Shown one piece after another: positions 3,031 to 63,601 of a DNA stretch of 64,000 bases (positions within the stretch are counted from its first letter, which is position 1; each line of letters opens with the position of its first letter). The notes under the pieces are model-generated. The model searched no databases and was not told the DNA's origin. It saw only the letters and a list, made by a program, of their open reading frames with translations. Source of the stretch: an uncultured Candidatus Saccharibacteria bacterium (GTDB lineage Bacteria > Patescibacteriota > Saccharimonadia > Saccharimonadales > CAYUUR01); contig CAYUUR010000003.1 in assembly GCA_964448075.1 (NCBI GenBank), positions 133,610-197,609 on the forward strand, in the 5' to 3' direction. The position numbers and the translations under genes were made by a program.

Positions 3031-3048
3031 ACCCCACCGTTTCTGTCG

Positions 3049-4272: not shown

Positions 4273-4305
4273 AAGCGCTATTGTAGCAAGCTTTTCGTCT
4301 CTGTA

Positions 4306-5751: not shown

Positions 5752-5796
5752 CAGAGGTATTTTAGCTGATTGTCAGCAAACTGTAAAAAGAAGTTA

Positions 5797-6936
5797 CTAC
5801 AGGCTACTGGCGACACGGAGCAACTGGTCGCTATTGAGGTTAGAGTTGCCATCAATCTGATACCATACGCCACCACTTACCCATGTGGCGCTCGAATTGT
5901 TGTACATGTAAATAGTGCGGCCTGCTTCCTGAAACGTTTGGTATGGCTGGTTGAGCGTGGCTACAAAGTTGTTTAAGAGCGATTCGCTGTTCCATTCCGA
6001 AGGACGTTGCGATATCTGAAAATTACGTCCGTCGGTATTCGATGCAAAGTTAATAGTAACGACTCCGGGAGCAGCCTGTACCGGCCCGCTCATTGCAAAA
6101 CCGGATGGTTGATATTCTGGCAAGCGTGCACTAAAACCAGCTTTGTTAGCGGCCATACGGACGGCAATGTTCGGGATATTCTGATAAGCAAAGAAGCCAA
6201 CGAGTAGTAGTACGGACAAGCTAGCAGCAGCAGTACTTACAAAGCGGCTACTTACACCAAGTTTGTGGGCGACTTTGTGTTTTGTTTTTGTCTTAGCTAG
6301 TTTGTGTTTGGTATGACTGGTTGATTTTTCCATGGCCGCAGCGATTGTAGATTGCGCTCCGCTGCTGTGTTTGGCAGCCACTGGTCGTGTGCTCGCTGTG
6401 AGCGGTGGTGCTTGTCTGTGTGCTGGTGCGACGTGTGCGGGCATTGGGGTGACGGGCAGATGCTTCGTGGTCTTAGTGACCGGCTTCGGACCGAATCCAA
6501 ACCGACTAATCAACGGACTCTGTGCGATCTTGTGCGCCTGTTGGGCACGTTTTTCTTGGATTTGAGCAGGAGTAGTTACTGCATGGTCTAGGGGGGTCGA
6601 TACTGCCGAGAATGCTTTGGTCTGTGTAGCGTTGGAGGGTTTCTTTACCGCGCTACGCATAAGGGTCTTTGCAGCTTGCGGCTTACGGGTGGCGTGACTT
6701 GGTTTTTGCGCGCTCGTGGCTGGTTTGACCTTTGGTGTGGGATGTACAGACACGGCCGAGCTACGGACGAATCCATCCATGTTTGTGCCCGCTGTGCGCT
6801 GAGCAGGCACTTTTTTGCCAGTTGCATTCTGATGAACGGTTACCTTTGACTGCGGCGCTGTCTCTGTCAACATCTTACCACTGACTGCGTCGTATTTTTT
6901 GCCGTTCAGTTCAATTACCGATTTGGTATGTGCCAC
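5797..6936 (-). CDS. hypothetical single-pass membrane protein (basic Ala/Pro/Thr-rich N-terminal half, TM, C-terminal globular domain)
   Basis: Long uninterrupted ORF; TM segment LSVLLLVGFFAY; no family recognised. Confidence 0.5.
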   Translation of the reverse strand: MAHTKSVIELNGKKYDAVSGKMLTETAPQSKVTVHQNATGKKVPAQRTAGTNMDGFVRSSAVSVHPTPKVKPATSAQKPSHATRKPQAAKTLMRSAVKKPSNATQTKAFSAVSTPLDHAVTTPAQIQEKRAQQAHKIAQSPLISRFGFGPKPVTKTTKHLPVTPMPAHVAPAHRQAPPLTASTRPVAAKHSSGAQSTIAAAMEKSTSHTKHKLAKTKTKHKVAHKLGVSSRFVSTAAASLSVLLLVGFFAYQNIPNIAVRMAANKAGFSARLPEYQPSGFAMSGPVQAAPGVVTINFASNTDGRNFQISQRPSEWNSESLLNNFVATLNQPYQTFQEAGRTIYMYNNSSATWVSGGVWYQIDGNSNLNSDQLLRVASSL

Positions 6937-7068
6937 TTTTTTGTTACCCTCTTTTTGAATATGCTTGCGCTTGTATCTGAATAGTATGTATCTTAGCGCT
7001 CCTTGTCGTTGTCTGCAAGCAGAAACCTTCGTGACGCCTGCGCTCAGACGTGCTATAAATTGTATTGC

Positions 7069-8532
7069 ATGGATTTTCTAGACCCATCTAAAAAAAGAAA
7101 AAACGGCATCAAGTTATTTGTTGGCTATTTACTGGTCGGTATTGCAATCGGCCTCGCTGCTCTTATCTTAATCTTTTTGTCTTATGGCTACTCACTTGAT
7201 CGTAAAACCGGCAGTGTTATCCAGAACGGCATCGTATTCGTTGCTTCTAAACCTGCCGATGCAGAGATATTCATAAATGGCGAGAAATACAAGGACAATA
7301 CAGACGCGCGTTTAGTTTTACCGAGTGCTCAGTACAAGCTGGAGATTCGGAAGAACGGCTACCGAACCTGGCAACGTGATTTTTATTTGAGTGGCGGTGA
7401 GATCCAGCGCTTTATCTATCCGTTCCTATTCCCGACTACACTAAGCACGAGTGATGTTGATACATTTACTGCAGCTCCGAGTATGGCATCGCAAAGCCCA
7501 GACCGTCGTTGGTTGATTGTTCAGTCTACAGCGCGCGATACAAGTTTTTCACTTTATGATCTGAACCAAGACGCACCAGTTGCGCAGTCACTCAGTTTAC
7601 CAAAAAACCTCGCAACTACAGGTACCACAGATGTCAAGGTCGTCGAATGGGCGAATGACAACAAGCATGTCTTACTTAAGCTGACCAGTAAAAAAGGTGT
7701 AGAGTTTATAATTCTCGATCGTGAGACGCCCACAAAATCACTTAATATCACATCAGCCACTAAGAAAGTAGCAGATGCGGTTACCTTACGCGACAAAAAG
7801 TTTGATACGTGGTATATGCATGTGTCTGGCAAACGGCAATTGTTTGTTGCCAGCGTCGGCACACCGACACCAAAGCTGCTCATTGAAGGGGTTATCGACT
7901 ACAAGACATACAGTACAGACGTCATTATGTACGCAACCGAAAACAAGGCAACTAAGGGCAAGGCACGTATCGTGATATGGGATGACGGGCGCGCAGATGT
8001 TCTGCGTGAGGTTGCTAAAAGTAAGAAGTATTTGCTTGACGTAACCCGCTTTGACAATCGATGGTATTTTGTGGCTGGCGCAGCTTCAGACGGTAAGATA
8101 TATGTATACCGAGACCCATTTGAAGTTATTCGAGCCAAGAATCCCGCCCAGCTTGTACCTGCAACAATCATGCGCCTAGATAACCCGACAAACGTGAGCT
8201 TTTCACAGAATACACGATTTGTTGCCGCGCAAGCAGGTGGTACATTTGCGGTTTATGACGCAGAAGCGGAGCTTGCCTATCGTTATGAGACTTCGCTTGC
8301 TTTCGTAGATGGCCAGAAAGCAGCATGGATGGATGGGCATCGTTTGAGTGCGGTTGTTGATGGTAAAGTAGTAGTCTTCGATTACGACGGCATAAATATG
8401 CAGACCTTGACCGATTCATCTACAGCGATGTTGCCTTACTTTACGAACAATTACGAAACCCTGTATACAGTTGCGCCTAAGGCAAAGTCAACAGAAGCAA
8501 ACCTCAGGCGTTCTAGTCTGCTTGTTGACTAG
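7069..8532 (+). CDS. PEGA domain-containing membrane-anchored protein
   Basis: Start moved to MDFLDPSKKRK (ATG 7069). TM helix, then PADAEIFINGEKY...YKLEIRKNGYRTWQRDF (PEGA-type beta-sandwich signature). Confidence 0.65.
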   Translation: MDFLDPSKKRKNGIKLFVGYLLVGIAIGLAALILIFLSYGYSLDRKTGSVIQNGIVFVASKPADAEIFINGEKYKDNTDARLVLPSAQYKLEIRKNGYRTWQRDFYLSGGEIQRFIYPFLFPTTLSTSDVDTFTAAPSMASQSPDRRWLIVQSTARDTSFSLYDLNQDAPVAQSLSLPKNLATTGTTDVKVVEWANDNKHVLLKLTSKKGVEFIILDRETPTKSLNITSATKKVADAVTLRDKKFDTWYMHVSGKRQLFVASVGTPTPKLLIEGVIDYKTYSTDVIMYATENKATKGKARIVIWDDGRADVLREVAKSKKYLLDVTRFDNRWYFVAGAASDGKIYVYRDPFEVIRAKNPAQLVPATIMRLDNPTNVSFSQNTRFVAAQAGGTFAVYDAEAELAYRYETSLAFVDGQKAAWMDGHRLSAVVDGKVVVFDYDGINMQTLTDSSTAMLPYFTNNYETLYTVAPKAKSTEANLRRSSLLVD

Positions 8533-8535
8533 CGT

Positions 8536-9732
8536 CTATTGCTCGTCTCCGCCACGTAGCCATGCCGTCATGCGGTTCCATAGGCTTGGTGCATTGCCTG
8601 GTACAACTTCAACCGCTTCATCGCTTGCTTTAGCCGTACTTGCCTTGTTGCTGGTTGGGCTCGGACTAATCTGCTCTGCTACCACGATAAGTCGGTTGAT
8701 TGATGTGCCTGGCGGGTCACACGTAATGAGTGTGACGGTTGCCGGTTTGCTCGTTTTACCGAGGACACTGACGTCACTCGGTTTAACAATCTTCTTCTCG
8801 TACACTTTGTATACGTATCTTTTACTGTCTTTCGTTAGGATGATGGTGTCGCCGGGTTGCAGGCGGTTCAAAAGTACGAAGGCAAATTTGTATTTACCTT
8901 GGTTGAGGATGTTGTTGCTGGAGTGCCCCACAATGACGGCATTCCCTTTCTCACCCGGGTTAGAGGTTGTGGCGTAGTGTACGACACCTCGCTCTAGTGA
9001 ATTTTGAATCGCAGATTCTTTGATACTCGGCTCGTCATAGACAACTGGAATCTCTACATTGATTTTAGGAATGATTACTTTTGGTTCGGGGCCAACTGCC
9101 GTACTGCTTGGGTCGATGATGATTGGTGTATTACTAACGGCTTTGCTTGGGGTGATAAAGGGCGCAATAAAACGTTCGTTGAAGAAGCCAAAGAGCATAA
9201 CAAGCAGTACTGTTGCACCAATGCCAAGCCCAAAAAATACTGACTGCATGTGTTGTTTTCGGGTCAGTTTTTTGTTGCTCACCGCATTGCGTGCGATGCG
9301 CCGCTTTAGGTCGCCAACGCTGGTTGGCGTTGCCGCGCGTTTTTTGTCTGGAGATGGTTTGTGTCGCGGTGTGTGTGCTGTTTCGACTGGCTGTTGTGCA
9401 GTCGTTACGGGCTGTTTTGAACGATCGTTTGTGTCGTAGAACTCTTGCCAGACTTGATGTTTTTCTTTATCAGGGAGGCTCTGATAATATTCATGCCAAG
9501 CAGTCTGGATTTCGGGTTGGGATTTGCCCGAAGCGATTAGCTCGTGCATGTAGCGTTGGTGTTTGCTGCGGTGGTCTGATGACTCTGCCAGTACGGCTTC
9601 TTTTTTGGCACTTGGTTCTTCGCCGTATAAGGCGCTGATCTTTTGCCGAATAACTTGGGCTGCCAAGTCACCATCGTGATTGGGCGCACGGTTGCTTGTT
9701 GGCTGTGTTGATGATGTGTCGTCTGGGTTCAT
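8536..9732 (-). CDS. sortase-family transpeptidase with long disordered N-terminal region
   Basis: TM helix, then VIVGHS...FAFVLLNRLQPGD...TLITCDP (TLxTC catalytic Cys motif)...RLIVVA. Confidence 0.8.
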   Translation of the reverse strand: MNPDDTSSTQPTSNRAPNHDGDLAAQVIRQKISALYGEEPSAKKEAVLAESSDHRSKHQRYMHELIASGKSQPEIQTAWHEYYQSLPDKEKHQVWQEFYDTNDRSKQPVTTAQQPVETAHTPRHKPSPDKKRAATPTSVGDLKRRIARNAVSNKKLTRKQHMQSVFFGLGIGATVLLVMLFGFFNERFIAPFITPSKAVSNTPIIIDPSSTAVGPEPKVIIPKINVEIPVVYDEPSIKESAIQNSLERGVVHYATTSNPGEKGNAVIVGHSSNNILNQGKYKFAFVLLNRLQPGDTIILTKDSKRYVYKVYEKKIVKPSDVSVLGKTSKPATVTLITCDPPGTSINRLIVVAEQISPSPTSNKASTAKASDEAVEVVPGNAPSLWNRMTAWLRGGDEQ

Positions 9733-9860
9733 AAAAATGCCGCGTCTCTTTGCGCGATACTCTAATTATAGTACAATAGCCCCTGATATTAACAGAGATG
9801 TTTTGCTTGTGCTTGATTATCTTCTGACGTGTATCTGTACTTTACGATAACTTATTGTCC

Positions 9861-9914
9861 GGGCGAGTGGCGGGTCTCAAGTGAAACATAGCCCAAGAAC
9901 AATTGTATACGCGC
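9861..9914 (+). repeat. partial upstream copy of the tRNA-Leu 5' end (two identical blocks split by a 31-nt insert)
   Basis: gggcgagtggcgg (9861-9873) equals tRNA 9973-9985. gtatacgcgc (9905-9914) equals tRNA 9991-10000. The blocks are 5 nt apart in the tRNA and 31 nt apart here; no T-arm follows. Confidence 0.6.
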
Positions 9915-9972
9915 TGCGCGAATCGTCCGCAAAGACGCTAAACTAACCTTTACAACTAGGCTTGATAACCGC

Positions 9973-10057
9973 GGGCGAGTGGCGGAACTGGTATACGCGC
10001 ACGACTCAAAATCGTGTTCCTTACGGATTGAGGGTTCGATTCCCTCCTCGCCCACCA
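9973..10057 (+). tRNA. tRNA-Leu(CAA), class II with long variable arm, CCA encoded
   Basis: Acceptor GGGCGAG/CTCGCCC; anticodon stem CACGA/TCGTG with loop CTCAAAA; T-arm GAGGG-TTCGATT-CCCTC; ACCA end. Confidence 0.9.
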
Positions 10058-10061
10058 ATCT

Positions 10062-10088
10062 AAAAACCGGCAAAGAGGCCGGTTTTTA
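10062..10088. terminator. bidirectional rho-independent terminator-like hairpin after tRNA-Leu
   Basis: aaaaaccggc-aaagag-gccggttttt: GC stem flanked by an A-run and a T-run. Confidence 0.6.
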
Positions 10089-10091
10089 GAT

Positions 10092-10220
10092 TGGTGAATG
10101 AAGCGAATCGAACCCATACGGCGCAGCCGCGGTCCGTTCATGAGGAGCTCGCGCAGGAGCTTGCTCTGAGTAAGCGACGAAATGCGAGGGTAAGGCCTGA
10201 GGTCCCTCCTCGCCCGCCAA
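10092..10220 (+). repeat. tRNA-linked mini-element (E-type, no cargo) ending in a copy of the tRNA-Leu 3' end
   Basis: Starts with tggtgaatgaagcgaatcgaaccc, a diverged inverted copy of the tRNA 3' half. Contains core gcgcaggagcttgctctgagtaa. Ends with tccctcctcgcccGccaa (10203-10220), 17/18 identical to tRNA 10041-10058. Confidence 0.6.
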
Positions 10221-10223
10221 CAG

Positions 10224-11213
10224 CTAACCAAGAATTTCCAGAAGTTGATCCGTTCTTCGGTTTAGCCGATCAGTAACTGCACTGTCACCAACGCTGCTTT
10301 CTCCAGCGAGCATTGCTTCGTATTCAAGTACACATTCCTCGATGACTTTCAAAGGGCTAACCCAGGCGCTTCCTGTGTCGTACTTCAACGCGAGGTCTCG
10401 TGTGGCAACGATAGTCGTTATCTCATCGGCGTATACGTCTTCTGTTCGGACTGCCTTGACCTGTATTTTGTATGCAGGATAGAACTGAAAGGCCTCATCA
10501 TCTTGCGTTAGACCTAAAATATCAAAAGATGTACGTGGCTCTCCGTATTTGCAGAATTTCACATCTTCACTAAACAAAGCTGGCCGTACAAACCAGCTTC
10601 CATCACCAATTCCTTGTACGCTGAACCTTTCGAGTACTAACGACACGGCTTGCTCTGCCGCGAGTCCCCAGAAATCACTTGTTTGCTCTGCATCTTCATT
10701 GTCTCTGTAATACTGCTGAGAATTAGCGATCAATTGCGACACATTAAGGTTACGATGGTGTGCGGCTCGTAATAGTTCGGGATCCATCCTTGTTTGAGTG
10801 GGGGTTAACTGTTCAAAGACATCCATGTGCGCAAGTAATACAGCAGCTCTGGCCGTTGAATCGCTGGAGAATATTTCACCTTCTGACATGAGTGCCTGTT
10901 GCATATTGTGGCGTGCTTGGCCAAGGAATGCGCTGCGAGATCCACTTTCAGTCTGCATAGCGATATCAAGATACATCGCTCCGCTGCGCGCCAGTGCCTC
11001 GCTCGTACCTTGTCCTTCGAGCTCATAGATTACTTGGAGTCTCTCTCCGTCGTCAGCTGCCGCAGTATATCGCTTGGCTAGTTCTTTAGGTGTGGTTGTG
11101 TGCGCTGGCGCCTTTTCTCCATTTGCACCATGATACGTCTGATAGTGACGCTTTCGGAGTCTGTCTCTCTGTTTTTGGGTTTTTTGGTACCCGTTAGAAT
11201 TGTGCCTTGACAT
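10224..11213 (-). CDS. hypothetical protein
   Basis: 329-aa uninterrupted ORF; stop lies 3 nt from the tRNA-Leu 3'-end repeat; no family recognised. Confidence 0.5.
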   Translation of the reverse strand: MSRHNSNGYQKTQKQRDRLRKRHYQTYHGANGEKAPAHTTTPKELAKRYTAAADDGERLQVIYELEGQGTSEALARSGAMYLDIAMQTESGSRSAFLGQARHNMQQALMSEGEIFSSDSTARAAVLLAHMDVFEQLTPTQTRMDPELLRAAHHRNLNVSQLIANSQQYYRDNEDAEQTSDFWGLAAEQAVSLVLERFSVQGIGDGSWFVRPALFSEDVKFCKYGEPRTSFDILGLTQDDEAFQFYPAYKIQVKAVRTEDVYADEITTIVATRDLALKYDTGSAWVSPLKVIEECVLEYEAMLAGESSVGDSAVTDRLNRRTDQLLEILG

Positions 11214-17573: not shown

Positions 17574-17660
17574 GAGGTAGATTATTTTCTCACCCTTTAT
17601 GACGCTTTCGTCTGTACTGTGATGACTAACGGACTGTTTTTCTATCTCCGCGACTATCCC

Positions 17661-17689
17661 TTGACATCAAGGAACAGATGAGCTAAACT
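17661..17689 (+). promoter_or_regulatory. sigma70-like promoter for the transposase gene
   Basis: TTGACA (17661-17666), 17-nt spacer, TAAACT (17684-17689); ATG at 17696, so the transcript would be almost leaderless. Confidence 0.35.
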
Positions 17690-17695
17690 GTAAGT

Positions 17696-18589
17696 ATGAA
17701 AGTTGAACGGTACACAATAGATACGTTTCATCTGGAGTTTCCTGATGATGACACTTGTCTTGACTACATGTTCAACCTGGCCTACGGCAATCTCCCAGCC
17801 TGCCCTCAATGCGGTGTTGTTGAGCCCCGTTACTACCGCGTTAGAAACCGCAAATGCTACGCCTGTAATGACTGTGGCTACCAAATCAGCCCTCTGGCTA
17901 ATACTATCTTCCATAAGTCTGAAACCCCACTGACTAAATGGTTCTACGCCATCTACCTGTTCAGTGTTGGTAAAAACGGCGTATCAGCTAAAGAAATAGA
18001 ACGACACTTAGGCGTTACGTATAAGACCGCCTGGCGCATGGCTAAACAAATCCGCCTGATGATGCAGCAAGGTGGCTCTCCACTATCAGGTGTTGTTGAG
18101 GCTGATGAAACCTACGTAGGCGGTAAAACTCGCCGTGATAAAATGTACGATAACAAAACAGCCGTTGTAGGCATTGTTGAAAAGCAAAAAGGCACTGGTC
18201 AGGTTAAAGCTTTTGCAACTAAACAGGCTGACGCTACCGTAACGCTACCGTTCCTGCGAGCCAACATTACACCTGGCTCAACGCTACACACTGACGACAG
18301 TCGTATCTACTCGCGCGTTAAACGTGACTTCTCTCATGAATTCGTTAATCACAGCAAGCTGGAGTACGTAAAGTCCGGTGTTCACACCAACACCATTGAA
18401 GGCTTTTGGGGTCAGCTTAAGCGATCACTCGACGGTACGTACCACTGTGTTAGTCCGAAGTATCTTCAGCTGTACGTGAACGAGTTCGTTTACCGGTATA
18501 ACCACCGGCACGTCGCGGCTTTCCCGGCTTTGATTCAAGTGGCTGCGCAGCCCGTTCTAGTATCTTCTCGAAATCTTCCTTCGCGTTAG
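17696..18589 (+). CDS. IS1595-family (ISXO2-like) DDE transposase
   Basis: N-terminal zinc ribbon (CPQCG...CNDCG), HTH (ISAKEIERHLGVTYKTAWRM), DDE blocks EADETYVGG / LHTDDSRIY / NTIEGFWGQLKR. Confidence 0.85.
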   Translation: MKVERYTIDTFHLEFPDDDTCLDYMFNLAYGNLPACPQCGVVEPRYYRVRNRKCYACNDCGYQISPLANTIFHKSETPLTKWFYAIYLFSVGKNGVSAKEIERHLGVTYKTAWRMAKQIRLMMQQGGSPLSGVVEADETYVGGKTRRDKMYDNKTAVVGIVEKQKGTGQVKAFATKQADATVTLPFLRANITPGSTLHTDDSRIYSRVKRDFSHEFVNHSKLEYVKSGVHTNTIEGFWGQLKRSLDGTYHCVSPKYLQLYVNEFVYRYNHRHVAAFPALIQVAAQPVLVSSRNLPSR

Positions 18590-18686
18590 GATTGCGCTCA
18601 GATTCTGGCAGGCTTTCCTCCCACTGCTTGATACTCTTGCGGACTTCATCGTTGCTTTTAGGCATGTTCCTAGTATACCGCACCAA
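18450..18686 (-). CDS. small hypothetical ORF overlapping the transposase 3' end
   Basis: 78-aa ORF (MPKSNDEVRKSIKQWEESL...); the last ~45 codons overlap the transposase gene antisense, so it may be a truncated or chimeric gene. Confidence 0.25.
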   Translation of the reverse strand: MVRYTRNMPKSNDEVRKSIKQWEESLPESERNPNAKEDFEKILERAAQPLESKPGKPRRAGGYTGKRTRSRTAEDTSD

Positions 18687-18840
18687 TCAAAATCACCTGG
18701 TATAGTATGCCAATCGGTTGGAATACTATCTGACAAAGCTTCATCTGTTAACTACTCTTATTTGAATTCCTTTACTATACAACTACAGCACCAGAGTTAC
18801 ATAACATTAACCTTACCCACCGACACCCAAGCTATCTGGT

Positions 18841-19095
18841 TTTACTTTTCTCTATATTTTTCCTCTTTCTTTTCTCCCTCTCTTTCTATATAAATATAGA
18901 GGAGAAGACATAAAGTGAATGATGAATGATTGTTAGTAGGTATATAAGTATGGCTGTAGGTAGTTGTTTGGGTGTAAGTATAGTGAATTATATCATCAGG
19001 TGTGTTAGTGATAATTTAGCTGGTTATGTGAGTAATTGTGGTAATGAGTTGAGCCTTGGTTTGGTAAGTATTGGAGTAAGTTAGTAGGTAGATGT
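18841..19095 (+). repeat. strand-asymmetric ori/iteron-like tract (polypyrimidine arm, AT palindrome, C-depleted GT-rich iterons)
   Basis: 18841-18890 is almost purine-free. The palindrome tctatataaatataga is centred near 18893. 18901-19095 has only 7 C by my count and at least 7 copies of GT(A/G)(A/G)GT(A/T). It lies directly upstream of the replication-relaxation gene. Confidence 0.5.
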
Positions 19096-20004
19096 ATGCG
19101 TGATCTAGCAATCAATGAAGCTGAAGTTAATAAATCTAGCAAAGTGGATGCAGTGAAGTACCGCAGACCACTAAACCCTCAGCAGCTGAAAACCCTGCAC
19201 CTACTGTATTGGTACCGTTTCTGCACAGCCAAGCAACTAGCTCGTTCGCTGGACAAATCCAGCCATAAGGCCATACAAAACAAGCTGCAGATACTTGAAG
19301 CGCAAGGCTTTATTGGCAAACGCTATGACACGTCCTACAAGCTTGTCGGAAGACCAGCTGAGTACTTTATTACTCCCAAAGGCGTCCGTGTACTTGAAAA
19401 GGCCAAACCAAATACTACCAACCAGTGGGCAACCAAAAGCCTGTACAAGAACAAGACGGTGTCTGGTGACTTCCTGAGGCATTGCGTCACCGTAACTGAA
19501 GTATCTCAAAGACTGAGAGCTATATATGGAGACAGCAACAAGCTCCGTAGATTCTCCAAAAGCTATATGGCAGAGTTTAGCCACTATCCCCAATGGACAC
19601 CGGACTTACACCTTGAGATACCAGGCAAAGGTGAAACGCCCGCCAAACACTACTTTGTAGACATTTGGGATGGTACCAAGCCGTTCTTTGTCAGTGTCAG
19701 GAAGGCACGGAACTATGTGAACTTCAAAGACAGTGGCGGCAAGGATGGCACTGAATGGCAGGAGGATGAACAGTTTCCGGCAATACTGGCCATATGCCAG
19801 AACGAGCAAACCCAGAAGAAGCTAAACCGGCAGATGAGGCGTATTTTAGACGAGCAGTGGGATGAGGAGCTGGTGTTTGCTACAACGACAAGGCAGCAGC
19901 TTATGGAAGCTACCAAACCAGCACAGAAGGTGTGGCTACAGATTCACTCGGACGAGGAGCCAACCAAACGCTCTTTGAACCAGCTATTTGCACCAAAAAG
20001 CTAA
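19096..20004 (+). CDS. replication-relaxation family protein (plasmid-type winged-helix)
   Basis: LNPQQLKTLHLLYWYRFCTAKQLARSL...KLQILEAQGFIGKRYD matches the N-terminal wHTH pattern of Replic_Relax proteins. Confidence 0.6.
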   Translation: MRDLAINEAEVNKSSKVDAVKYRRPLNPQQLKTLHLLYWYRFCTAKQLARSLDKSSHKAIQNKLQILEAQGFIGKRYDTSYKLVGRPAEYFITPKGVRVLEKAKPNTTNQWATKSLYKNKTVSGDFLRHCVTVTEVSQRLRAIYGDSNKLRRFSKSYMAEFSHYPQWTPDLHLEIPGKGETPAKHYFVDIWDGTKPFFVSVRKARNYVNFKDSGGKDGTEWQEDEQFPAILAICQNEQTQKKLNRQMRRILDEQWDEELVFATTTRQQLMEATKPAQKVWLQIHSDEEPTKRSLNQLFAPKS

Positions 20005-20294
20005 TGGTGTAGAATATACGTAAGCAGTATTCATATACTGAGTGTAGTGGAAGCAAAAACTATGAAAACTACGTATACATTAGAGGGGAATAATCAAACC
20101 GGCACTATCAGTGGTTTAGATTGCGCATCAGCGCAATCTCGTCTCTCTCTCTCGGTTAGCGCAAGCGCTAACCGCACCGATAGCCCTAAAACCGTCAGCA
20201 GCCGTCTCTATTTTGGACGGCTAATTTTATTTCCTGGAGTAACAGCAGTGCAAGCCTAATATAATCAAAAACCAGCAAGAATAACGAACCAAGA

Positions 20295-21635
20295 ATGGAA
20301 CCCAACGTGGAAACCCTGACCCAAACCATTAACATCGTCATCGGCGGAGACGGCACCGGCAGCCTGGCAGATACTGGCGTCTCCCTCCTGCCGCTCATAG
20401 CCATTGCCGTAATGCTCATAGCTTCCGGTATTCTTTCGTGGCGCTTTGCCCACCGCTCCCACAAACTCAGCTTCCGTAGTCTCGGCGTCTTTGCCTTCTT
20501 TGCCCTCGCAGGCCTTGGTTTGACCCTCAACCTCTCAGCCGTCACCGCTGCTCCCACTCTCACCCTCGGTACTAACCAAGACACGCTCACTGTCACCGTT
20601 CCCGAAGGCGGAGGTGAAGCCAGCACGACTACCACCCTCACATCAGGTACCACCAACCCTGAGGGCTATACCCTCACGGCAGCACTAGCTGAAGCCGAGC
20701 CAGGCATAGCTATTAAGCTCAAGGGTGGAGACATCACTACCAGCACAGCCCTCGAACCAGGCGCTCCTGCCTTAACGCTCAAAACCACTGAAAGTGCCAG
20801 CTCAAACGACACCACTGAAGTAACGCTGGACTTCACCATTGATGGTACGGTAACCTCAGGCACCAAAGAACTCAAGCTGGCCTATACGGTTACCGACAAC
20901 GAGCCAACCGGTCCGGCTACCCTCCAAAGCTTCACCACTGAGGCCTGCGATGCACTACCTGCCTACACCGGCAGCAATGAAGACGCCGTTATCACCCTGA
21001 CCGACAGTAGAGACGATCAAGCATACCAGGTCGCCAAACTAGCCGATAACAACTGCTGGATGCTCGACAACCTCAAGCTGGGCTCTACTACGGGCACCAT
21101 AGAACTGACACCAGAGGATTCTAATGTCGGCAGTAACTTCACGTTGCCGCAGCTCTACAGCGGTTATTCCGGTGACTATCTGAGCTATGACGACCCACAC
21201 GCCTATGGCCCGCTCCCCGGAGACACCGGAGAAGGCGAAACCAACTACGGCTACTTATACAACTGGCCTGCCGCCACTGCCGGTGAAACAAGAGACAGCC
21301 ATGACGAAACCGCAGGCGATGCACCATACTCCATTTGTCCGGCCAATTGGCGGCTGCCAACCGGTGGTAGTGGCGGTGAGTTCGCAGCGCTCTATACCGC
21401 ACTCGGTAGCAGCCCTGCCCAGTGGAATTACCCAGGACCGTTTCAAGGCACGTTCGCGGGCTACTGGTGGGAAGGCTTCAACGATCAGGGTGACTACGGC
21501 TACGTGTGGTCGAGTTCGGCCTACCCGGGCAATCCTGACTACGCGTTCAACGCGTACTTCGGCGCAGGTGAAGTGGGCCCAGCCGTCTACGGCGATCGGA
21601 GCGCTGGGCTGTCTGTCCGCTGTCTCTTAAATTAG
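20295..21635 (+). CDS. DGR target (variable) protein: N-terminal TM segments, Thr-rich region, Fib_succ_major (FISUMP)-like region, C-type-lectin-fold VR at the C-terminus
   Basis: DSRDDQAYQVAKLADNNCWMLDNLKLG (TIGR02145-like). The C-terminal 57 codons are the VR partner of the TR at 23067-23236. Confidence 0.85.
   Translation: MEPNVETLTQTINIVIGGDGTGSLADTGVSLLPLIAIAVMLIASGILSWRFAHRSHKLSFRSLGVFAFFALAGLGLTLNLSAVTAAPTLTLGTNQDTLTVTVPEGGGEASTTTTLTSGTTNPEGYTLTAALAEAEPGIAIKLKGGDITTSTALEPGAPALTLKTTESASSNDTTEVTLDFTIDGTVTSGTKELKLAYTVTDNEPTGPATLQSFTTEACDALPAYTGSNEDAVITLTDSRDDQAYQVAKLADNNCWMLDNLKLGSTTGTIELTPEDSNVGSNFTLPQLYSGYSGDYLSYDDPHAYGPLPGDTGEGETNYGYLYNWPAATAGETRDSHDETAGDAPYSICPANWRLPTGGSGGEFAALYTALGSSPAQWNYPGPFQGTFAGYWWEGFNDQGDYGYVWSSSAYPGNPDYAFNAYFGAGEVGPAVYGDRSAGLSVRCLLN
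21453..21622 (+). repeat. DGR variable repeat (VR) including the 3' IMH-like invariant end
   Basis: Gap-free 170-bp alignment to 23067-23236. 19 mismatches by my count, all at TR adenines. The last 21 nt, cgctgggctgtctgtccgctg, are identical. Confidence 0.9.
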
Positions 21636-21648
21636 CGTCAGCTAATTC

Positions 21649-21720
21649 CGGTACCCCACAAAGCGAGACTGGCGCGAAGGCGTGACCACGCCTGAGCCCG
21701 TCGAGTCGACTGGGGTACCG
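21649..21720 (+). promoter_or_regulatory. GC-rich inverted repeat immediately downstream of VR (DGR-associated stem structure)
   Basis: cggtacccca (21649-21658) is the perfect reverse complement of tggggtaccg (21711-21720). An inner hairpin ggcg-tgacca-cgcc is present. Confidence 0.55.
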
Positions 21721-21743
21721 TCGCAGGATTTTATGATACGGAC

Positions 21744-22835
21744 ATGGCCATGAATACTTCAGACGAACGCGCCACGTGGCTCGCCAAAGAACTCAGGAAG
21801 GCGTACGTAGCTGCGCGGCGCGGCAAGACCAACAAGCCCGAGGTTGAAAAGTTCGATGCTATCGCCAAGCTTGAGTTGCCAGCGCTGGCCAAAGAAATTC
21901 ACTCGCGCAGCTATACACCCCGTCCTTCAACAGCGTTTATCGTGAACAAACCCGTCAAGCGGGAGATATTCGCCGCCGACTTCCGCGACCGGGTGGTGCA
22001 TCATTTTCTGTTCAATCAGGTCAACAAGTGGTGGGACGCCCGGTTTATCGAAGATAACTATAGTTGCCGCGTTGGCAAAGGTACGCTCTATGGTATCCGC
22101 CGTTTAGACCATCATATCCGCTCGGTGAGCCGTAACTATACCCGGCCAGCCTACGTACTCAAGCTGGATCTGCAAGGGTACTTTATGAGCTTGGAGCGCA
22201 AAAAGCTGTACGCGCGGGCAATGTGGGGGCTGGACAGGCAGTTTCCCGAAAGAGGCTATGCCTATCAGCTGTGTAAGTTTCTCTGGAAGGTGATAATTTT
22301 CAACGACCCGCTCAATAAGGTGGAATTCAATTGCCCGCGGAGCGCCTGGAAAGGCTTGCCGCCGAGCAAAAGTCTGTTCCACCAGCCCAAAGGGCGCGGC
22401 ATCGCCATCGGCAATCTGACGTCGCAGCTGCTGAGCAACATCTATCTCGACCAGCTGGATCAGTTTGTAACGCTGGAACTAGGATTTAAACATTATGGGC
22501 GCTACGTTGATGATTTTTATATTGTTTCTGAGAGCAAAGCCGAGTTGGTTCAGGCTAGTAGTACTATAGAGGCGTACGTCACAGGTCGACTCGGTCTTGT
22601 TTTGCACCCTCATAAACGACACCTGCAAGAGTGTCATAAGGGGGTTGCGTTCTTAGGCGCGGTGATCTATCCGCACCGCATCCACCCCGGCAAACGACTG
22701 AAGCGCAACCTGCTGGCAGCACTCTCTCAGGAGGATTGCTCAAAAGAAACCGAAGCGTCATATAAGGGATTAGTGAAGCATTACAAGCATCATAAACTAC
22801 TAAAAGGTGTAGCTATTGAACGGGGGGTACAATAG
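21744..22835 (+). CDS. DGR-type reverse transcriptase
   Basis: IGNLTSQLLSNIYL ([I/L]GxxxSQ, DGR RT signature) and GRYVDDFYIV (YxDD catalytic box). Located between VR and TR. Confidence 0.9.
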   Translation: MAMNTSDERATWLAKELRKAYVAARRGKTNKPEVEKFDAIAKLELPALAKEIHSRSYTPRPSTAFIVNKPVKREIFAADFRDRVVHHFLFNQVNKWWDARFIEDNYSCRVGKGTLYGIRRLDHHIRSVSRNYTRPAYVLKLDLQGYFMSLERKKLYARAMWGLDRQFPERGYAYQLCKFLWKVIIFNDPLNKVEFNCPRSAWKGLPPSKSLFHQPKGRGIAIGNLTSQLLSNIYLDQLDQFVTLELGFKHYGRYVDDFYIVSESKAELVQASSTIEAYVTGRLGLVLHPHKRHLQECHKGVAFLGAVIYPHRIHPGKRLKRNLLAALSQEDCSKETEASYKGLVKHYKHHKLLKGVAIERGVQ

Positions 22836-23066
22836 AGGCTATGCTTTGCCAGGCTCAGGGGCGGGCGGTGCTTGGCGGCTTTTTGCTTACTGCCCGAGGA
22901 TCGGCCTGGCGTATAAGCATATCTAAGAGACAATACTCACTAGCTTTGACTTGTTTCCTAGCTAGTTCTATAGGGGCAGCGCCGCCAAGACCTCCCTGCG
23001 TTTGGTACGCTGGACGCAGTACAACGAGTAGTATTGATACACGTGCGCTGGTCGGGGGCCTTCAGT

Positions 23067-23236
23067 TTCGCGGGCAACTGGTGGGAAGGCTTCAACGATC
23101 AGGGTGACAACGGCAACGTGTGGTCGAGTTCGGCCAACCCGGACAATCCTGACAACGCGTTCAACGCGAACTTCAACGCAGATGAAGTGAACCCAGCCAA
23201 CAACAACAATCGGAACGCTGGGCTGTCTGTCCGCTG
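23067..23236 (+). repeat. DGR template repeat (TR), Asn-codon (AAC) rich
   Basis: Reads ...GDNGNVWSSSANPDNPDNAFNANFNADEVNPANNNNRNAGLSVR in the VR frame. Differs from VR only where TR has A. Confidence 0.9.
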
Positions 23237-23672
23237 ACTCTTAGAGCATATTTTGTAACAGTTTTGCACTCACTACACCTCTATTGGCTCATCTTCCTCT
23301 GAGCCGGTATTTTAGCACTTTTTGCTTCATTCGTCTTTGTTTTAACTGTTCCTTGACGTTAGGGGATACTCTCGTCTATCTCTGTATTGCCCTGTTGAAT
23401 TTTTTCTGTACGTACTTCTTGTTCTTGGTCCGCCATCAGTTCTCCTTTAGTGCCCGTTGTTAGTTGTCCATCTAGTATGTAGGCTCTCGATCGTTTAATC
23501 TGTACAAAATGTCACATACTGTTTTTGGGTTGCGTGCTATTAAAAATGGCCTACGAAAGCGTAAGGCCATTCAAGTGTGATTCATATGCAGTTAACACTG
23601 CCAACTAAGTGAAGGCGTCATTCATTTGTTGAGATCAAACGCAAGTCATCCTATGTAAACAAGCTTGTTTCG

Positions 23673-23770
23673 TGGCGGAGAGAGAGGGTAACGCGCAGCT
23701 GCTTCCGTTCTCGGAGCAAGCTCCTGTGAGCGGACTTGCTGACCGAACCCGGCTCGAATCCCTCTTCTTT
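23673..23770 (-). repeat. tRNA-linked mini-element (E-type, no cargo) ending in a copy of the tRNA-Ser 3' end
   Basis: tggcggagagagaggg (23673-23688) is identical to tRNA-Ser 23816-23831. The core (tRNA-sense) is GGTTCGGTCAGCAAGTCCGCTCACAGGAGCTTGCTCCGAGAACGGAAGCAGCTGCGCGTTACCC. The 5' GAAGAGGGATTCGAG can pair with the 3' CCCTCTC. Confidence 0.6.
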
Positions 23771-23780
23771 AGAGACAAGA

Positions 23781-23811
23781 AAAACGGCCACACTGATGTG
23801 TGACCATTTTT
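23781..23811. terminator. bidirectional terminator-like hairpin after tRNA-Ser
   Basis: aaaac-ggccacac-tgat-gtgtgacc-attttt. Confidence 0.6.
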
Positions 23812-23815
23812 CTCC

Positions 23816-23907
23816 TGGCGGAGAGAGAGGGATTCGAACCCTCGAGACGTTTTGCAACGCCTACACGCTTTCCAAGCGTGCTCCTTCAGCCACTCGGACA
23901 CCTCTCC
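23816..23907 (-). tRNA. tRNA-Ser(GGA), class II, CCA encoded
   Basis: Reverse complement GGAGAGGTGTCCGAGTGGCTGAAGGAGCACGCTTGGAAAGCGTG...GAGGGTTCGAATCCCTCTCTCTCCGCCA; anticodon loop TTGGAAA. Confidence 0.9.
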
Positions 23908-38703: not shown

Positions 38704-38891
38704 CGTAACCCCTTTGTTAGCACTGATTCTACATAATGTTATGCATCCTGACCAGTATTCAGAACGATAACTTTGTATTATTCAATTGATTGTTAGAGGA
38801 AGTACTTAGCAATTTACTACTGCTAATTATATAGCTGAGTTATGCCTTCAGAATGATAAAAAGTCACAGTCTCAATGCTACAGACTCTTCC

Positions 38892-39069
38892 TGCCTTTTG
38901 GGGTCGGGTAATGCACAGCTGCACTCGTTCTCGGAGTAAACTCCTGCGAGCGATCTTGATGACCGAACCGACAACCTGCGCTAGCTAAAGCTATCGCGTT
39001 GTCTTGTTCGGACCCAGCCTAGAAAGAATAAAAAAAGACCCTCAGTTGAGGATCTTGTTTCATTGGCTC
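38892..39069 (-). repeat. E-type mini-element plus terminator plus minimal tRNA-Asn-like remnant
   Basis: tRNA-sense block GGTTCGGTCATCAAGATCGCTCGCAGGAGTTTACTCCGAGAACGAGTGCAGCTGTGCATTACCC has 12 differences in 64 nt versus the tRNA-Ser-linked copy. It ends CCGACCCCAAAAGGCA (compare tRNA-Asn CCGACCCCGGGAGCCA). Terminator at 39036-39056; tggctc at 39064-39069. Confidence 0.55.
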
Positions 39070-39125
39070 ACAACGATAGAGCAAGTCATAACTGCAATCA
39101 AACAAGATTTTGGTACAATTTGATC

Positions 39126-49982: not shown

Positions 49983-51260
49983 ATGCTGGACGAAAATACT
50001 CAACCACTTAAGTACTGCCTGTACGCTCGAAAGTCTTCCGAGTCTGACGAGCGTCAGGCAATGTCGATTGACTCACAACTTAACGAAATGAGAGCACTAG
50101 CCGAAAATGAAGGCCTGCAGATAGTCTGCGAGCTTCAGGAGAGTCACTCTGCTAAAGATTCTGGCAAAAGACCCGTATACAACAAATTACTTAAGGGCTT
50201 AGCAAGCGAAGAATATAATGCCGTCCTCACATGGGCACCCGATCGACTAAGTAGGAATGCTGGCGACCTTGGATCGGTTGTTGACCTCATGGATCAAGGC
50301 AAGCTACTGCATATCCGTACTTACTCGCAGACGTTCACAAATAACCCGAACGAGAAGTTCTTACTAATGATTCTATGTTCGCAAGCCAAACTTGAGAACG
50401 ATAACAAAAGTATTAACGTCAAACGAGGCATTAGAAACAAATGCGAGATGGGTTGGCGACCAGGCGTTGCACCGCTTGGGTACATGAATCGAGCATTCGC
50501 AGGTGTTAACGACATAATCCTCGATCCTGATAGATCGGAACTAATTATCGAAGCTTTTCAAAAAGCTGGGTACGAGCGTTGGAGCGGTCGTAGGATAAAA
50601 GCATGGCTTGATGAGCAAGGCTTTACTAATCGTTCAGGAAAACCGATTAGTGTGAGTCAAATATTAGTAATACTCAGTACGCCATTCTACTATGGCAAAT
50701 TCCAATACCCTGAAGCACCAGATGCACCATGGTACACAGGTGCCCATAAGCCACTTATATCTAAAGAGTTGTTCGATCTCGTGCAAGAAACGAGAGGTGT
50801 CAACAAGGGTGTGTGGGGATCAAAAACATTTGCCTTCCGAGGACTACTGAAATGTGGACGGTGTACTGCAGATATCACAGCACAAGACAAATTCAAGACA
50901 CTAAAAAATGGTGATGTAAAAAGATTCGTCTACTACAACTGCACAAGACGTAAAGACCCAAACTGTGCCGAGAAATATGTGAATGAAGAAAGGCTTTGTG
51001 AATTGATGCAGGGTTTTATTGAGAAACATCACGAGGAGATAAAAATAACGGAGAAACTTAGGGCAAGAGTCGACAAACACTTCTATACAACTAAAACGAT
51101 ACTTACTCACTACAAAATCGATCAAAAACTAAATAATCCATTCATTGAGTATGCTCGATACGTACTTGCTGACGGCACGGATAGTGAGAGAACATTCTTA
51201 GCATCAAATATGGGTCCTATGCTTCAAATAAAGGATGGCGAACTTGAGTTCTATGTATAG
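49983..51260 (+). CDS. large serine recombinase (resolvase N-terminal domain, recombinase domain, zinc ribbon)
   Basis: YCLYARKSSESDERQAMSIDSQ (catalytic Ser context), APDRLSRN, GYMNR..., CGRCTADITAQ...YYNCTRRKDPNC. Confidence 0.85.
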   Translation: MLDENTQPLKYCLYARKSSESDERQAMSIDSQLNEMRALAENEGLQIVCELQESHSAKDSGKRPVYNKLLKGLASEEYNAVLTWAPDRLSRNAGDLGSVVDLMDQGKLLHIRTYSQTFTNNPNEKFLLMILCSQAKLENDNKSINVKRGIRNKCEMGWRPGVAPLGYMNRAFAGVNDIILDPDRSELIIEAFQKAGYERWSGRRIKAWLDEQGFTNRSGKPISVSQILVILSTPFYYGKFQYPEAPDAPWYTGAHKPLISKELFDLVQETRGVNKGVWGSKTFAFRGLLKCGRCTADITAQDKFKTLKNGDVKRFVYYNCTRRKDPNCAEKYVNEERLCELMQGFIEKHHEEIKITEKLRARVDKHFYTTKTILTHYKIDQKLNNPFIEYARYVLADGTDSERTFLASNMGPMLQIKDGELEFYV

Positions 51261-55399: not shown

Positions 55400-55419
55400 T
55401 ATGTAAAGGGACAGGTCTA

Positions 55420-55580
55420 GGAAACGGGTCAGGTATTCACCTGCTTGCTCCCTCAGGACGGGAAGGGCTGGGTTAGAACCAAGTTACAGGGGTGAAATGA
55501 AAGAACCGTCATTTCTGACGGTTCCAACATTGTAGCTTGTAATTGATACATTTCTTTCTTGGATGACCAAAGAGAGAAGT
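55420..55580 (-). repeat. F-type element: diverged copy of the region downstream of tRNA-Asn, with terminator hairpin
   Basis: cctgcttgctcc (55440-55451) is identical to 63312-63323. ggttagaaccaagttacaggggtga versus ggttcgaaccaaatcatcagaggtga. Hairpin gaaccgtca-tttc-tgacggttc at about 55503-55525. Confidence 0.5.
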
Positions 55581-55584
55581 TATT

Positions 55585-55660
55585 GCAGGTCTAGGAACTA
55601 GGTCTGCGTTTTTCTCTGCTTGGTCTGGCTCGGGAGACCGGACTCGAACCAACAATAGCT
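55585..55660 (-). repeat. diverged copy of the tRNA-Asn 3' half plus downstream spacer
   Basis: ctgcttggtctggctcgggagaccggactcgaaccaacaa versus tRNA locus gtgcttggtctggctcccggggtcggattcgaaccgacaa. No matching 5' acceptor strand. Confidence 0.6.
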
Positions 55661-60306: not shown

Positions 60307-60368
60307 CAGAGGCCGATGACCTCTGTTAATTAAGTTCGAAACTTGGCTCCGGGGAAAGGATTCGACTC
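60307..60368 (-). repeat. terminator hairpin plus degenerate tRNA-Asn-like 3' remnant
   Basis: cagagg-ccgatga-cctctg (60307-60325), then ...cttggctccggggaaaggattcgactc (tggctc at 60344). An inverted 10-mer gagccagacc lies at 60501-60510. Confidence 0.5.
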
Positions 60369-60588
60369 GTTCTGCTCACTCGGCAGCATTTTGCCAAAGC
60401 AAAATGCTCGTTCGGCCAAGCAGTGTTTCCTTAAACTGCCATTCAAGGGAGTTCTCGCCTCTCGGTTCGAATCGTTCATCTCAACAAACCAAAAGAAAAC
60501 GAGCCAGACCTTCGCTTAAATACTTTACATATGCTTTCGGTGGTTAGTGAATCGCTAATTGTAACGTGAGACACATATCTAGTATAGA

Positions 60589-61242: not shown

Positions 61243-61440
61243 CTTGCCCCCTGTGCATGTGTAACGGCACGCTGTCGAATCGTAGTTCTGTGCGCAGCCT
61301 GATTGACCGAACCTTCGACTTTCGCCAGCGAGCTGGCGAATCGAAGAACCGACCCATCGCCGAAGCCATATAAAAACAGCCCTCAAATGAGGACTGTTTT
61401 TATATGGCTCCGGGAACTGGACTCGAACTTTTGACACATA
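61243..61440 (-). repeat. E-type element (apical core deleted), terminator, and degenerate tRNA-Asn-like 3' remnant
   Basis: tRNA-sense order: ...GTTCGAGTCCAGTTCCCGGAGCCA (tggctc at 61405), terminator aaaaacagccctca-aat-gaggactgttttt (61372-61400), then GGGTCGGTTCTTCGATTCGCCAGC..GCTGGCGAAAGTCGAAGGTTCGGTCAATCAGGCTGCGCAC. Confidence 0.5.
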
Positions 61441-63280: not shown

Positions 63281-63526
63281 GGGAAGGTCACCGAACCCGG
63301 TCGCAATCTTCCCTGCTTGCTCCTCATATAGAGAACCGGTAAGGTTCGAACCAAATCATCAGAGGTGATTTGGTTCATCTCTCCCCTCTTTTCTGGTTCG
63401 AATGCTTACATCACAATACTGTATTTTAGGGAAACCGGTCTCGAACTAGTTAACAGATAAGAAGTAGTTTGACAGAAATAGAAAAACCGGTCACAGGAAA
63501 CCGGTCTACCTCTGTTGTGCTTGGTC
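63281..63526 (-). repeat. F-type element and spacer/terminator downstream of tRNA-Asn (tRNA-fragment-rich)
   Basis: Contains several GGTTCGAA-type T-loop fragments in both orientations, an 11-bp hairpin gaaccaaatca-tcagag-gtgatttggttc, the block shared with 55420-55580, and the ACCGGT..ACCGGT-TTTT terminator at about 63485-63510. Confidence 0.5.
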
Positions 63527-63601
63527 TGGCTCCCGGGGTCGGATTCGAACCGACAACCTCGAAGTTAACAGCTTCTTGCTCCACCATTGAGCTACCCGGG
63601 A
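63527..63601 (-). tRNA. tRNA-Asn(GTT), CCA encoded
   Basis: Reverse complement TCCCGGGTAGCTCAATGGTGGAGCAAGAAGCTGTTAACTTCGAGGTTGTCGGTTCGAATCCGACCCCGGGAGCCA; anticodon loop CTGTTAA. Confidence 0.9.

Follow-up and report, generated by a model that had tools for sequence, protein, structure and literature searches.

The 64,000-nucleotide stretch of an uncultured Candidatus Saccharibacteria bacterium analysed here (contig CAYUUR010000003.1, positions 133,610 to 197,609; hereafter the window) carries several copies of a structured non-coding element, which we refer to as E. Comparison with related loci in genomes and metagenomes showed that E is a phylum-restricted element of ~130 nt, lodged where the T-loop would be in a second copy of a tRNA 3' segment, and that it heads or borders arrays of gene cassettes. 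As judged from covariation in aligned sequences, its core hairpin is shown to be under selection for its fold. By analogy with the attC and attI sites of integrons, we suggest, with somewhat less than even confidence, that E may be the folded arm, specific to the tRNA-sense strand, of attachment sites located at tRNA ends. No description of E was found in Rfam or in the literature on Saccharibacteria and Patescibacteria, tRNA-linked repeats, cassettes and non-coding RNA, which was covered in part.

E elements occupy the T-loop position of copied tRNA 3' ends

In tRNA sense, a tRNA gene ending in CCA is followed by a terminator hairpin, a 5' hairpin designated P1 (..GAAYC..apical hairpin..GGTTCG), the core, and a block designated Y. 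The core is a ~50-nt hairpin with an invariant internal loop, within a conserved unit of ~60 bases. Y repeats the final ~16 nt of the tRNA, starting at the T-loop/T-stem boundary and running through the 3' strand of the T-stem to CCA, and many copies of E also repeat X, the variable-loop/T-stem 5' strand of the tRNA. Where X is present, the core stands exactly at the position of T-loop bases 58–60. Sequence derived from tRNA is limited to the flanks X and Y and does not extend to the core.

A degenerate pattern of the core matched 14 loci in a genome collection and 31 loci in metagenomes (~45 in all), and no locus in viral contigs. Among the 14 loci from genomes, 12 belong to metagenome-assembled genomes (MAGs) of Saccharibacteria or Patescibacteria, and the other two (L012 and L014) are on one contig of a MAG labelled Limnocylindria. 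That contig (DATHJH010000025.1), which carries Saccharibacteria-type E elements, is probably mis-binned, because it is identical to stretches of the metagenome contig Ga0193742_1000156.

The loci, examined as 8-kb stretches, contain 39 distinct copies of E, 26 of which have an upstream tRNA gene on the same stretch. The core lies 67–106 nt 3' of a same-strand tRNA gene in 25 of these 26 copies and 206 nt from it in the remaining one, and 12 tRNA types are involved (Leu, Ser, Tyr, Lys, Glu, Trp, Asp, Ile, Pro, Met, Arg, and Asn). Y is identical to the last 16 nt of the tRNA in 9 of the 26 copies and agrees at 13 positions or more in 17, and wherever the start of the identity block could be anchored (15 of 15 cases) it falls 0–3 nt from the T-loop/T-stem boundary. 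X, 12–14 nt before the core, is copied exactly in 8 of the 26, with one or two changes in several more. Y also tracks the lineage-specific T-stem of orthologous tRNA-Met genes, and the 5' strand of P1 matches its own X only moderately better than a foreign X (p = 0.005). One locus (L010) is syntenic with window positions 2966–10732 at 85% identity; the orthologous Leu copies of E differ at ~9 of 125 positions counted by eye (~93% identity), compared to 85% in the flanks. An ARAGORN call of a tmRNA at L010 7018–7324, overlapping tRNA-Leu, is most likely false and caused by the tRNA.

The window holds three full E-type cores, namely the Leu, Ser and 38.9-kb copies, and one gutted copy at 61.3 kb. 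An earlier note, made from the letters of the window, had quoted two of the cores, and both quotations are exact, at 23686–23749 (−) and 38906–38969 (−). These two cores form a direct repeat with 83% identity, in keeping with the ~80% given in that note, although the exact count is 11 differing positions in 64 and not 12; no comparable match arose in 100 shuffles. A third full copy, behind tRNA-Leu, was retrieved by a profile search and a covariance model, which also recovered the gutted copy. The features are as follows, with scores for covariance model R1 given in bits.

9973..10094 (+): tRNA-Leu(caa) gene (9973–10057), followed by a bidirectional terminator hairpin with CCA at the start of its stem (10055–10094)
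10131..10193 (+): E-type core of the tRNA-Leu copy, a subtype with an extra 3' hairpin; R1, 67.1 bits
10204..10219 (+): Y of the Leu copy, CCCTCCTCGCCCgCCA, 15/16 positions identical to the 3' end of tRNA-Leu
23673..23688 (−): Y of the Ser copy, CCCTCTCTCTCCGCCA, 16/16 identical to the last 16 nt of tRNA-Ser
23687..23749 (−): E-type core of the tRNA-Ser copy, an exact match to the sequence in the earlier note; R1, 80.5 bits
23752..23811 (−): T-arm-like 5' strand GAGGGATTCGAGCC (23752–23765) and terminator hairpin (23777–23811) of the Ser unit
23816..23907 (−): tRNA-Ser(gga) gene, anchor of the Ser copy
38890..38897 (−): Y remnant CCGACCCC of the 38.9-kb copy, equal to tRNA-Asn of the window over the T-stem 3' strand and the first part of the acceptor strand
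38907..38969 (−): E-type core of the 38.9-kb copy; R1, 78.8 bits, E-value 2e-17
38963..39015 (−): 5' hairpin P1 (CCGAAC...GGTTCGG) of the 38.9-kb copy, from folding
39035..39071 (−): terminator-like hairpin (39035–39056), with GTGAGCCA (39064–39071) before it in tRNA sense
61255..61357 (−): degenerate E copy; covariance model, 13 bits, E-value 0.36
61360..61428 (−): terminator hairpin (61360–61413) overlapping the 24-nt tRNA-Asn 3' fragment GTTCGAGTCCAGTTCCCGGAGCCA (61405–61428)
63527..63601 (−): tRNA-Asn(gtt) gene, whose 3' end is repeated at 61405–61428, 60344–60368 and 55617–55655, and in the Y remnant at 38890–38897

In the 38.9-kb core, GGTTCGGTCA is followed by a hairpin of helices P2–P5 with a UUUA apical loop and then by GTGCATTACC. 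The 13 bases preceding this core (GGTTGTCGGTTCG) are tRNA-Asn sequence as well, and the GTGAGCCA block is likely a remnant of a tRNA 3' end. Beyond CCGACCCC its Y has decayed, and a related copy (L009) retains CCGACCCCtGGGgGCCA. The size variation of the CGAAC..GTTCG hairpin described in the earlier note was borne out: it holds a short loop in the Ser copy, a 36-nt nested hairpin inside P1 (38970–39005) in the 38.9-kb copy, and a nested CGCCAGC-TC-GCTGGCG hairpin in the 61.3-kb copy. The last copy, noted as lacking the apical part, retains its P1 and has in fact lost the inner core hairpin entirely, so that only GGTTCGGTCA...TGCGCA is left of the core at ~61286–61313 (−).

These results also change how two claims of the earlier note are to be read. 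The copies were described as lying at unrelated loci, whereas every one of them is found 3' of a terminator hairpin that follows either a tRNA gene or a 3' fragment of a tRNA. The locus-dependent closing helix is present as described (GAGGG/CCCTC in the Ser copy and GGGTC/GACCC in the 38.9-kb copy, where GGGTC at 39011–39015 can pair with GACCC at 38891–38895), although it does not represent compensatory evolution, since the T-stem is copied from the tRNA from which the unit derives. Therefore, the flanks are fragments of a known RNA gene, namely tRNA, which is one of the outcomes that the note had named as speaking against its proposal. The core is not such a fragment, and it matches no known RNA family or insertion sequence (IS) end. 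No cloverleaf was found in the E copies, and ARAGORN and the Rfam model RF00005 call only the three true tRNAs in the window.

Where a displaced attachment (att) fragment is present, the tRNA 3' end is expected to recur as a direct repeat behind an intact tRNA gene, as it does here, and the window holds such 3' fragments for Ser, Leu and Asn. Cargo with a recombinase between the repeats, the other mark of such a fragment, is missing: most units hold only a terminator and E there, and they contain no recombinase.

Several further features were observed at these tRNA ends. The terminator between tRNA and P1 is bidirectional in both the Ser and Leu copies, with a stem starting at CCA, and the terminators after these tRNAs generally (10055–10094, 61360–61413 and at most loci) are bidirectional, consisting of an A-tract, a stem and a T-tract, with the stems extended by pairing of the encoded CCA with a downstream TGG. 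After tRNA-Asn and after its 55.6-kb fragment, the window carries another element type (63290–63526 and 55400–55616, both −), with a ..CGAACC..GGTTCGAACC.. hairpin followed by GAGG(G)AGCAAGCAGG; the flank of tRNA-Asn in L021 (4502–4743) is 85% identical to this type. An E-like variant at 60344–60500 (−) comprises CGAACGAG, a CATTTTGC-TTTG-GCAAAATG hairpin, CCGAGTGAGCAGAACG, the tRNA-Asn fragment GAGTCGAATCCTTTCCCCGGAGCCA and a terminator. Directly after the tRNA-Thr genes of L001 (~2280–2360, −) and L004 (~970–1052, −) there are 66-nt mini-elements, made up of a hairpin with a AGCTTGCT loop, CGAGG(G/A)AGC, a GCA-triloop hairpin, and an 11-nt copy of the acceptor 3' strand with CCA, which seem to be short relatives of E.

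Fold of the core and strand preference

The earlier note had suggested that selection acts on the fold rather than on the sequence, and covariation in the core bears this out. In a MAFFT alignment of 17 cores, 86.8% of the cells of the four-helix hairpin P2–P5 are paired, compared to 71.6% in shuffles, with 47 double-change cells against 14, and RNAalifold, run on an alignment that was not fitted to the structure, predicted P3–P5 independently. With a covariance model built from the alignment of 17 cores, 60 matches (48 distinct sequences) were obtained in Saccharibacteria genomes and metagenomes, including tandem second copies and copies behind further tRNAs. In the set of 48 sequences, 89.1% of cells are paired (69.9% in shuffles; 25–40% with slid partners), 13 of the 16 pairs show compensatory changes, double-change cells number 143 against 39, and on every measure the observed value exceeded those of all 500 shuffles. 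This larger alignment leans towards the structure because it was fitted to the model, unlike the alignment of 17 cores.

The pair closing the CUUG/UUUA-type apical loop is C-G in 25 sequences, U-A in 21 and U-G in one, and is never unpaired. The change from GGAGC/GCTCC to GGAGT/ACTCC, for which a position within the loop had been considered in the earlier note, is a true swap of C-G to U-A that closes the loop. The internal loop, C.CA opposite GAG, is invariant. Against Rfam, at gathering and at permissive thresholds, the core had no family match, and only terminator look-alikes below 20 bits were returned. A closing helix of the 5' flank with Y, as a mimic of an acceptor stem or minihelix, is not general and was found in a subset of copies only; comparing cognate with non-cognate pairing gave p = 0.10. 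Among the motifs compared by eye, an SRP-like GGAAGCAGC motif occurs in the Ser copy only, a kink-turn lacks its G-A pairs, a sequestered Shine-Dalgarno sequence with start codon is not conserved, and group II domain V, tmRNA and a Y-RNA-like tRNA mimic gave no match. The group I introns known from tRNA genes of Patescibacteria are inserted at anticodon position 35/36 and are unrelated to E (PMC13011429).

Folding of both strands as DNA and as RNA, which the earlier note had put forward, revealed a preference for the tRNA-sense strand in P1 and in the whole element. With RNA parameters, P1 is more stable on this strand in 37 of 39 copies (mean −23.8 vs. −18.2 kcal/mol), and with DNA parameters the sense strand is better for P1 in 33 and for the whole element in 30 of 37 copies; P1 of the 38.9-kb copy (−) has a z-score of −4.2 as DNA and −2.9 as RNA. 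Triloop hairpins of the type C(GNA)G (GCGAAGC, GCGTAGC, GCGCAGC and similar) occur 15 times in sense and once in antisense orientation, 8.5-fold over the background of the loci, with GNRA tetraloops at background. GNA mini-hairpins are far more stable as DNA than as RNA, and are found at sites of priming and initiation on single-stranded DNA (PMC13037366, PMC3201870). No promoter-like site was seen preceding E, and the 38.9-kb copy is flanked by the terminator (39056–39035) and by the promoter-like site of the next gene (38754–38726). Based on the strand bias, the GNA loops and the lack of a promoter, we lean towards a fold of single-stranded DNA.

Cassette arrays behind tRNA genes, and recombinase and retroelement genes of the window

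Downstream of several E-Y units, copies of the acceptor 3' strand with CCA recur as Y-like sites that delimit single-gene cassettes, with E mostly present once per array, at its head. In L043, for example, tRNA-Tyr, a terminator and E-Y are followed by four open reading frames (ORFs), one encoding a GNAT acetyltransferase, and each ORF is trailed by a short 'y' site of ~30 nt (CCTACTTCGTAGATAA and CCCTGCACCA), from which the next ORF starts as near as 9 nt. A strain 94% identical to this one (L041) has the tRNA-proximal part in common and diverges exactly at a y site, beyond which there is a different cassette, and its array is ended by a second terminator-E-Y unit. Elsewhere, two near-identical terminator-E-Y units bracket 6 kb of cargo (L025), E-Y units alternate with single genes (L032 and L005), or two E subtypes stand in tandem, each with an Asn-type Y (L022). 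The comparison of strains shows that the unit of variation is the cassette bounded by tRNA-3'-end sites.

In L021, the homologue of window positions 55410–55650 lies directly beside the tRNA-Asn of that genome, and therefore ~8 kb have been inserted in the lineage of the window. The GC content of the window is ~0.49 up to 34 kb and ~0.44 over 34–64 kb, a drop that fits an island array ending at, or a little past, the 38.9-kb unit. At the tRNA-Lys loci (L005, L032, L007 and L011), ATGGCCCTCCA of the Lys-type Y and y sites is flanked by a common left arm AGTTGCAACAAGAAGTACG and a common right arm AT.CG.TTATG.TTAAA; with both arms such a site measures ~47 nt, a length matching that of a recombinase att site.

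A Pfam scan of ~55 of the ORFs of the window detected a large serine recombinase and an IS1595 transposase. The recombinase (49983–51260, +), with Resolvase, Recombinase and zinc-ribbon domains, is encoded within the part of the low-GC region that runs from the 38.9-kb unit to tRNA-Asn. No other site-specific recombinase was seen in the window, and no att sites could be assigned to this one. The transposase gene belongs to a segment that lies ~300 nt beyond the Ser E-Y unit and is delimited by 29-nt inverted repeats (17649–17677 and 23346–23374, 83% complementary). Between these repeats are the IS1595-family transposase (17696–18589), a Replic_Relax protein (19096–20004) and a complete diversity-generating retroelement (20295–23243), and 17649–23374 may be a 5.7-kb cargo-carrying IS. 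The retroelement consists of a target gene with a lectin-like C-terminus (20295–21635; variable repeat 21453–21629), a reverse transcriptase (21744–22835), a small ORF (22841–23107) and a template repeat (23067–23243), and all 20 mismatches between template and variable repeat are at template adenines.

Possible roles of E

Among known systems, E would appear to work most like integron attC and attI sites, yet it lacks defining features of attC. Both are non-coding, keep a fold over sequence, fold in a strand-specific manner as single strands with conserved unpaired bases, lie at the borders of promoterless single-gene cassettes in co-oriented arrays, and vary in length through a central insert. 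The likeness to attC drawn in the earlier note therefore holds for the one-strand fold with compensatory changes and does not extend to the R boxes or the integron integrase. The mutually pairing R'' (RYYYAAC) and R' (GTTRRRY) boxes of attC are absent from E, whose ends read GGTTCG.TCA and GTGCATTRCC; its GTTCGGT departs from GTTRRRY by a C at the first R position, and there is no inverse box at the other end. Integrons have an adjoining integrase and attI, whereas neither an integron integrase nor another tyrosine recombinase was found among the ~55 scanned ORFs of the window or in the 45 loci. Further, unlike in attC, the shared block is a tRNA 3' end, there is mostly one E per array, and most borders are short y sites.

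Other systems resemble E in part. The tycheposons of Prochlorococcus are tRNA-integrated islands with partial-tRNA repeats (bioRxiv 10.1101/2020.12.28.424599). As in E arrays, direct repeats of the tRNA 3' end flank successive insertions behind an intact tRNA gene, and tandem accretion pushes older units outward and leaves degenerate remnants. However, a tyrosine or large serine recombinase is encoded by the tycheposons themselves, whose sites are plain tRNA segments of ~40 nt (10.1101/2020.12.28.424599), whereas E units often contain no gene or one, lack a recombinase and have a conserved hairpin core at the T-loop position. In the folded, Xer-dependent attP of CTX-type phages, a DNA hairpin of one strand presents part of the recombination site, and likewise P1 of E rebuilds the T-stem/T-loop half of the tRNA target as a duplex; E differs in having no dif-like sequence and no phage, and in rebuilding only the left half of the target.

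Taken together, we hypothesize that E is the conserved folded left arm of tRNA-3'-end sites at which small gene cassettes and islands insert in Saccharibacteria. The tRNA-sense strand would fold once single-stranded, and a recombinase acting in trans would recognise the hairpins and not their sequence, as for integron attC/attI or the folded attP of CTX phage. Strand exchange might take place in the adjacent Y block that is common to the tRNA, which would explain why Y stays identical to it, and cassettes would enter behind E, leaving the tRNA gene and its terminator unbroken. This proposal is possible, and we prefer it tentatively. A wider version of it is rather doubtful: an integron-like, previously undescribed gene-cassette system anchored on tRNA 3' ends in Saccharibacteria with a recombinase encoded elsewhere, in which the cassettes are promoterless, their borders consist of a mini-hairpin, the acceptor 3' strand and CCA, and E is a T-arm mimic whose loop has been replaced by two hairpins and which serves as the folded single-strand primary docking site.

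Several observations weigh against an attachment-site role. The core hairpin alone is neutral between strands, and the thermodynamic stability of single sequences is significant for the 38.9-kb copy only. A simple attR model does not account for the X copies upstream of the core or for the imperfect match between the P1 5' strand and X. E is missing from most cassette borders, and therefore it is not needed at every site; moreover, the evidence for arrays comes from a handful of short metagenome contigs. Clustering of the 401 ORFs of all loci found no protein that recurs next to E, the commonest families (ABC transporter, DivIC and similar) and the other neighbours being ordinary or unknown. 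A regular-expression search of the 45 loci and the Pfam scan of the window detected no tyrosine-recombinase motif, and phmmer found no homologue of the serine recombinase of the window in these loci. Finally, read-through transcription from the tRNA could produce E as a transcript, with the fold acting as RNA.

This last point leads to an alternative that we regard as unlikely, although not remote, in which E is a structured non-coding RNA, produced by terminator read-through or from the tRNA trailer, with a 3' tail resembling that of a tRNA (3' strands of T-stem and acceptor, then CCA) and a role in tRNA metabolism or downstream expression. Covariation accompanied by unpaired bases that are conserved is what RNA motifs typically show, the apical loop is of the CUUG/UUUA type, and G-U pairs contribute to the stability of P1 on the sense strand. 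Another terminator often follows Y-CCA, as behind a genuine tRNA, the pairing between 5' flank and Y shows compensatory changes relative to the tRNA in some copies (for example L022-E2 and L033), and in 23 of 31 cases the ORF that comes first behind E shares its orientation. However, a strong terminator separates the tRNA from E, with no promoter-like site to start a transcript of its own, and the acceptor 5' strand is generally not present. The dominance of C(GNA)G triloops over GNRA tetraloops and the lack of an Rfam match also speak against it, and it leaves the Y-site arrays and the strain break at a y site unaccounted for.

A further reading, which we regard as improbable, takes the core for a selfish miniature element that inserted into the T-loop of tRNA 3' fragments displaced during island integration; its hairpin would reflect an intermediate of single-strand transposition, with no function for host or island. 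The copies with long X are flanked on both sides by exact tRNA sequence, the core replacing just 1–3 T-loop bases, as such an insertion would leave them, and GTTC, a target of IS91-type elements, always precedes the left junction. In addition, the cores of L019 (Ser) and L023 (Leu) are nearly identical while their P1 hairpins and terminators are unrelated; homogenisation of cores within genomes was considered and rejected, as it is seen for this pair only. Otherwise, cores within a genome are usually as different as between genomes (Ser vs. Leu in the window, L012 vs. L014). E has no terminal inverted repeats and no linked transposase, its pattern was not found in viral contigs, it is more conserved than coding flanks, and it was never found away from tRNA-end contexts. 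By the measures used for miniature inverted-repeat transposable elements and IS, Y could be read as a 16–17-bp target duplication, whereas the X copies and the Y-site arrays do not fit. A casposon-like target duplication was rejected, with no terminal repeats and no Cas1.

The strand-specific folding and the enrichment of C(GNA)G mini-hairpins would also suit a single-strand initiation signal that primes the complementary strand of cassette DNA travelling single-stranded, like the single-strand origins of rolling-circle plasmids or ssiA; this we consider quite improbable. These origins and the corresponding signals of single-stranded DNA phages are, like E, ~130-nt orientation-specific folded DNA with GNA-type mini-hairpins, and loops of TAGCGT or TAGCGA in some copies of E (L032, L030 and L028) recall TAGCGT, the CS-6 motif of ssoA. 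Of the attributes of ssoA (RSB, CS-6 and an adjoining rep gene), however, E has TAGCG(T/A) in a few copies and no rep gene was seen. E lacks a replication-initiator context and is usually fixed at a chromosomal tRNA gene instead of moving with cargo, and most cassettes are without E. C(GNA)G-type mini-hairpins are found at the priming sites of G4 and RSF1010 (PMC13037366).

Least probable is the reading of E as a guide-type RNA that serves an RNA-guided recombinase or transposase (cf. TnpB omega RNA, IS110 bridge RNA, or the tRNA-homing guides of CRISPR-associated transposons). A conserved scaffold (P1 and core) followed by ~16 nt identical to the target tRNA gene does resemble a 3'-guide layout, and the P1 5' strand complements the opposite side of the T-loop. 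However, TnpB, IS110-type and Cas genes are absent near all 45 loci, E has no promoter, and cassettes without the scaffold are likewise bounded by Y sites.

Although Saccharibacteria have genomes of ~1 Mb in which few mobile elements can be recognised, gene content varies between their strains. If E is the folded arm of tRNA-end attachment sites, it would point to a route by which single genes are exchanged at these sites, and its covariance model would provide a searchable marker for variable regions of uncultured Patescibacteria. E would also be the second natural case, after integron attC, of a recombination-linked site that is conserved as a fold. If E acts as RNA instead, it would represent a new phylum-specific structured RNA with a tRNA-specific tail.

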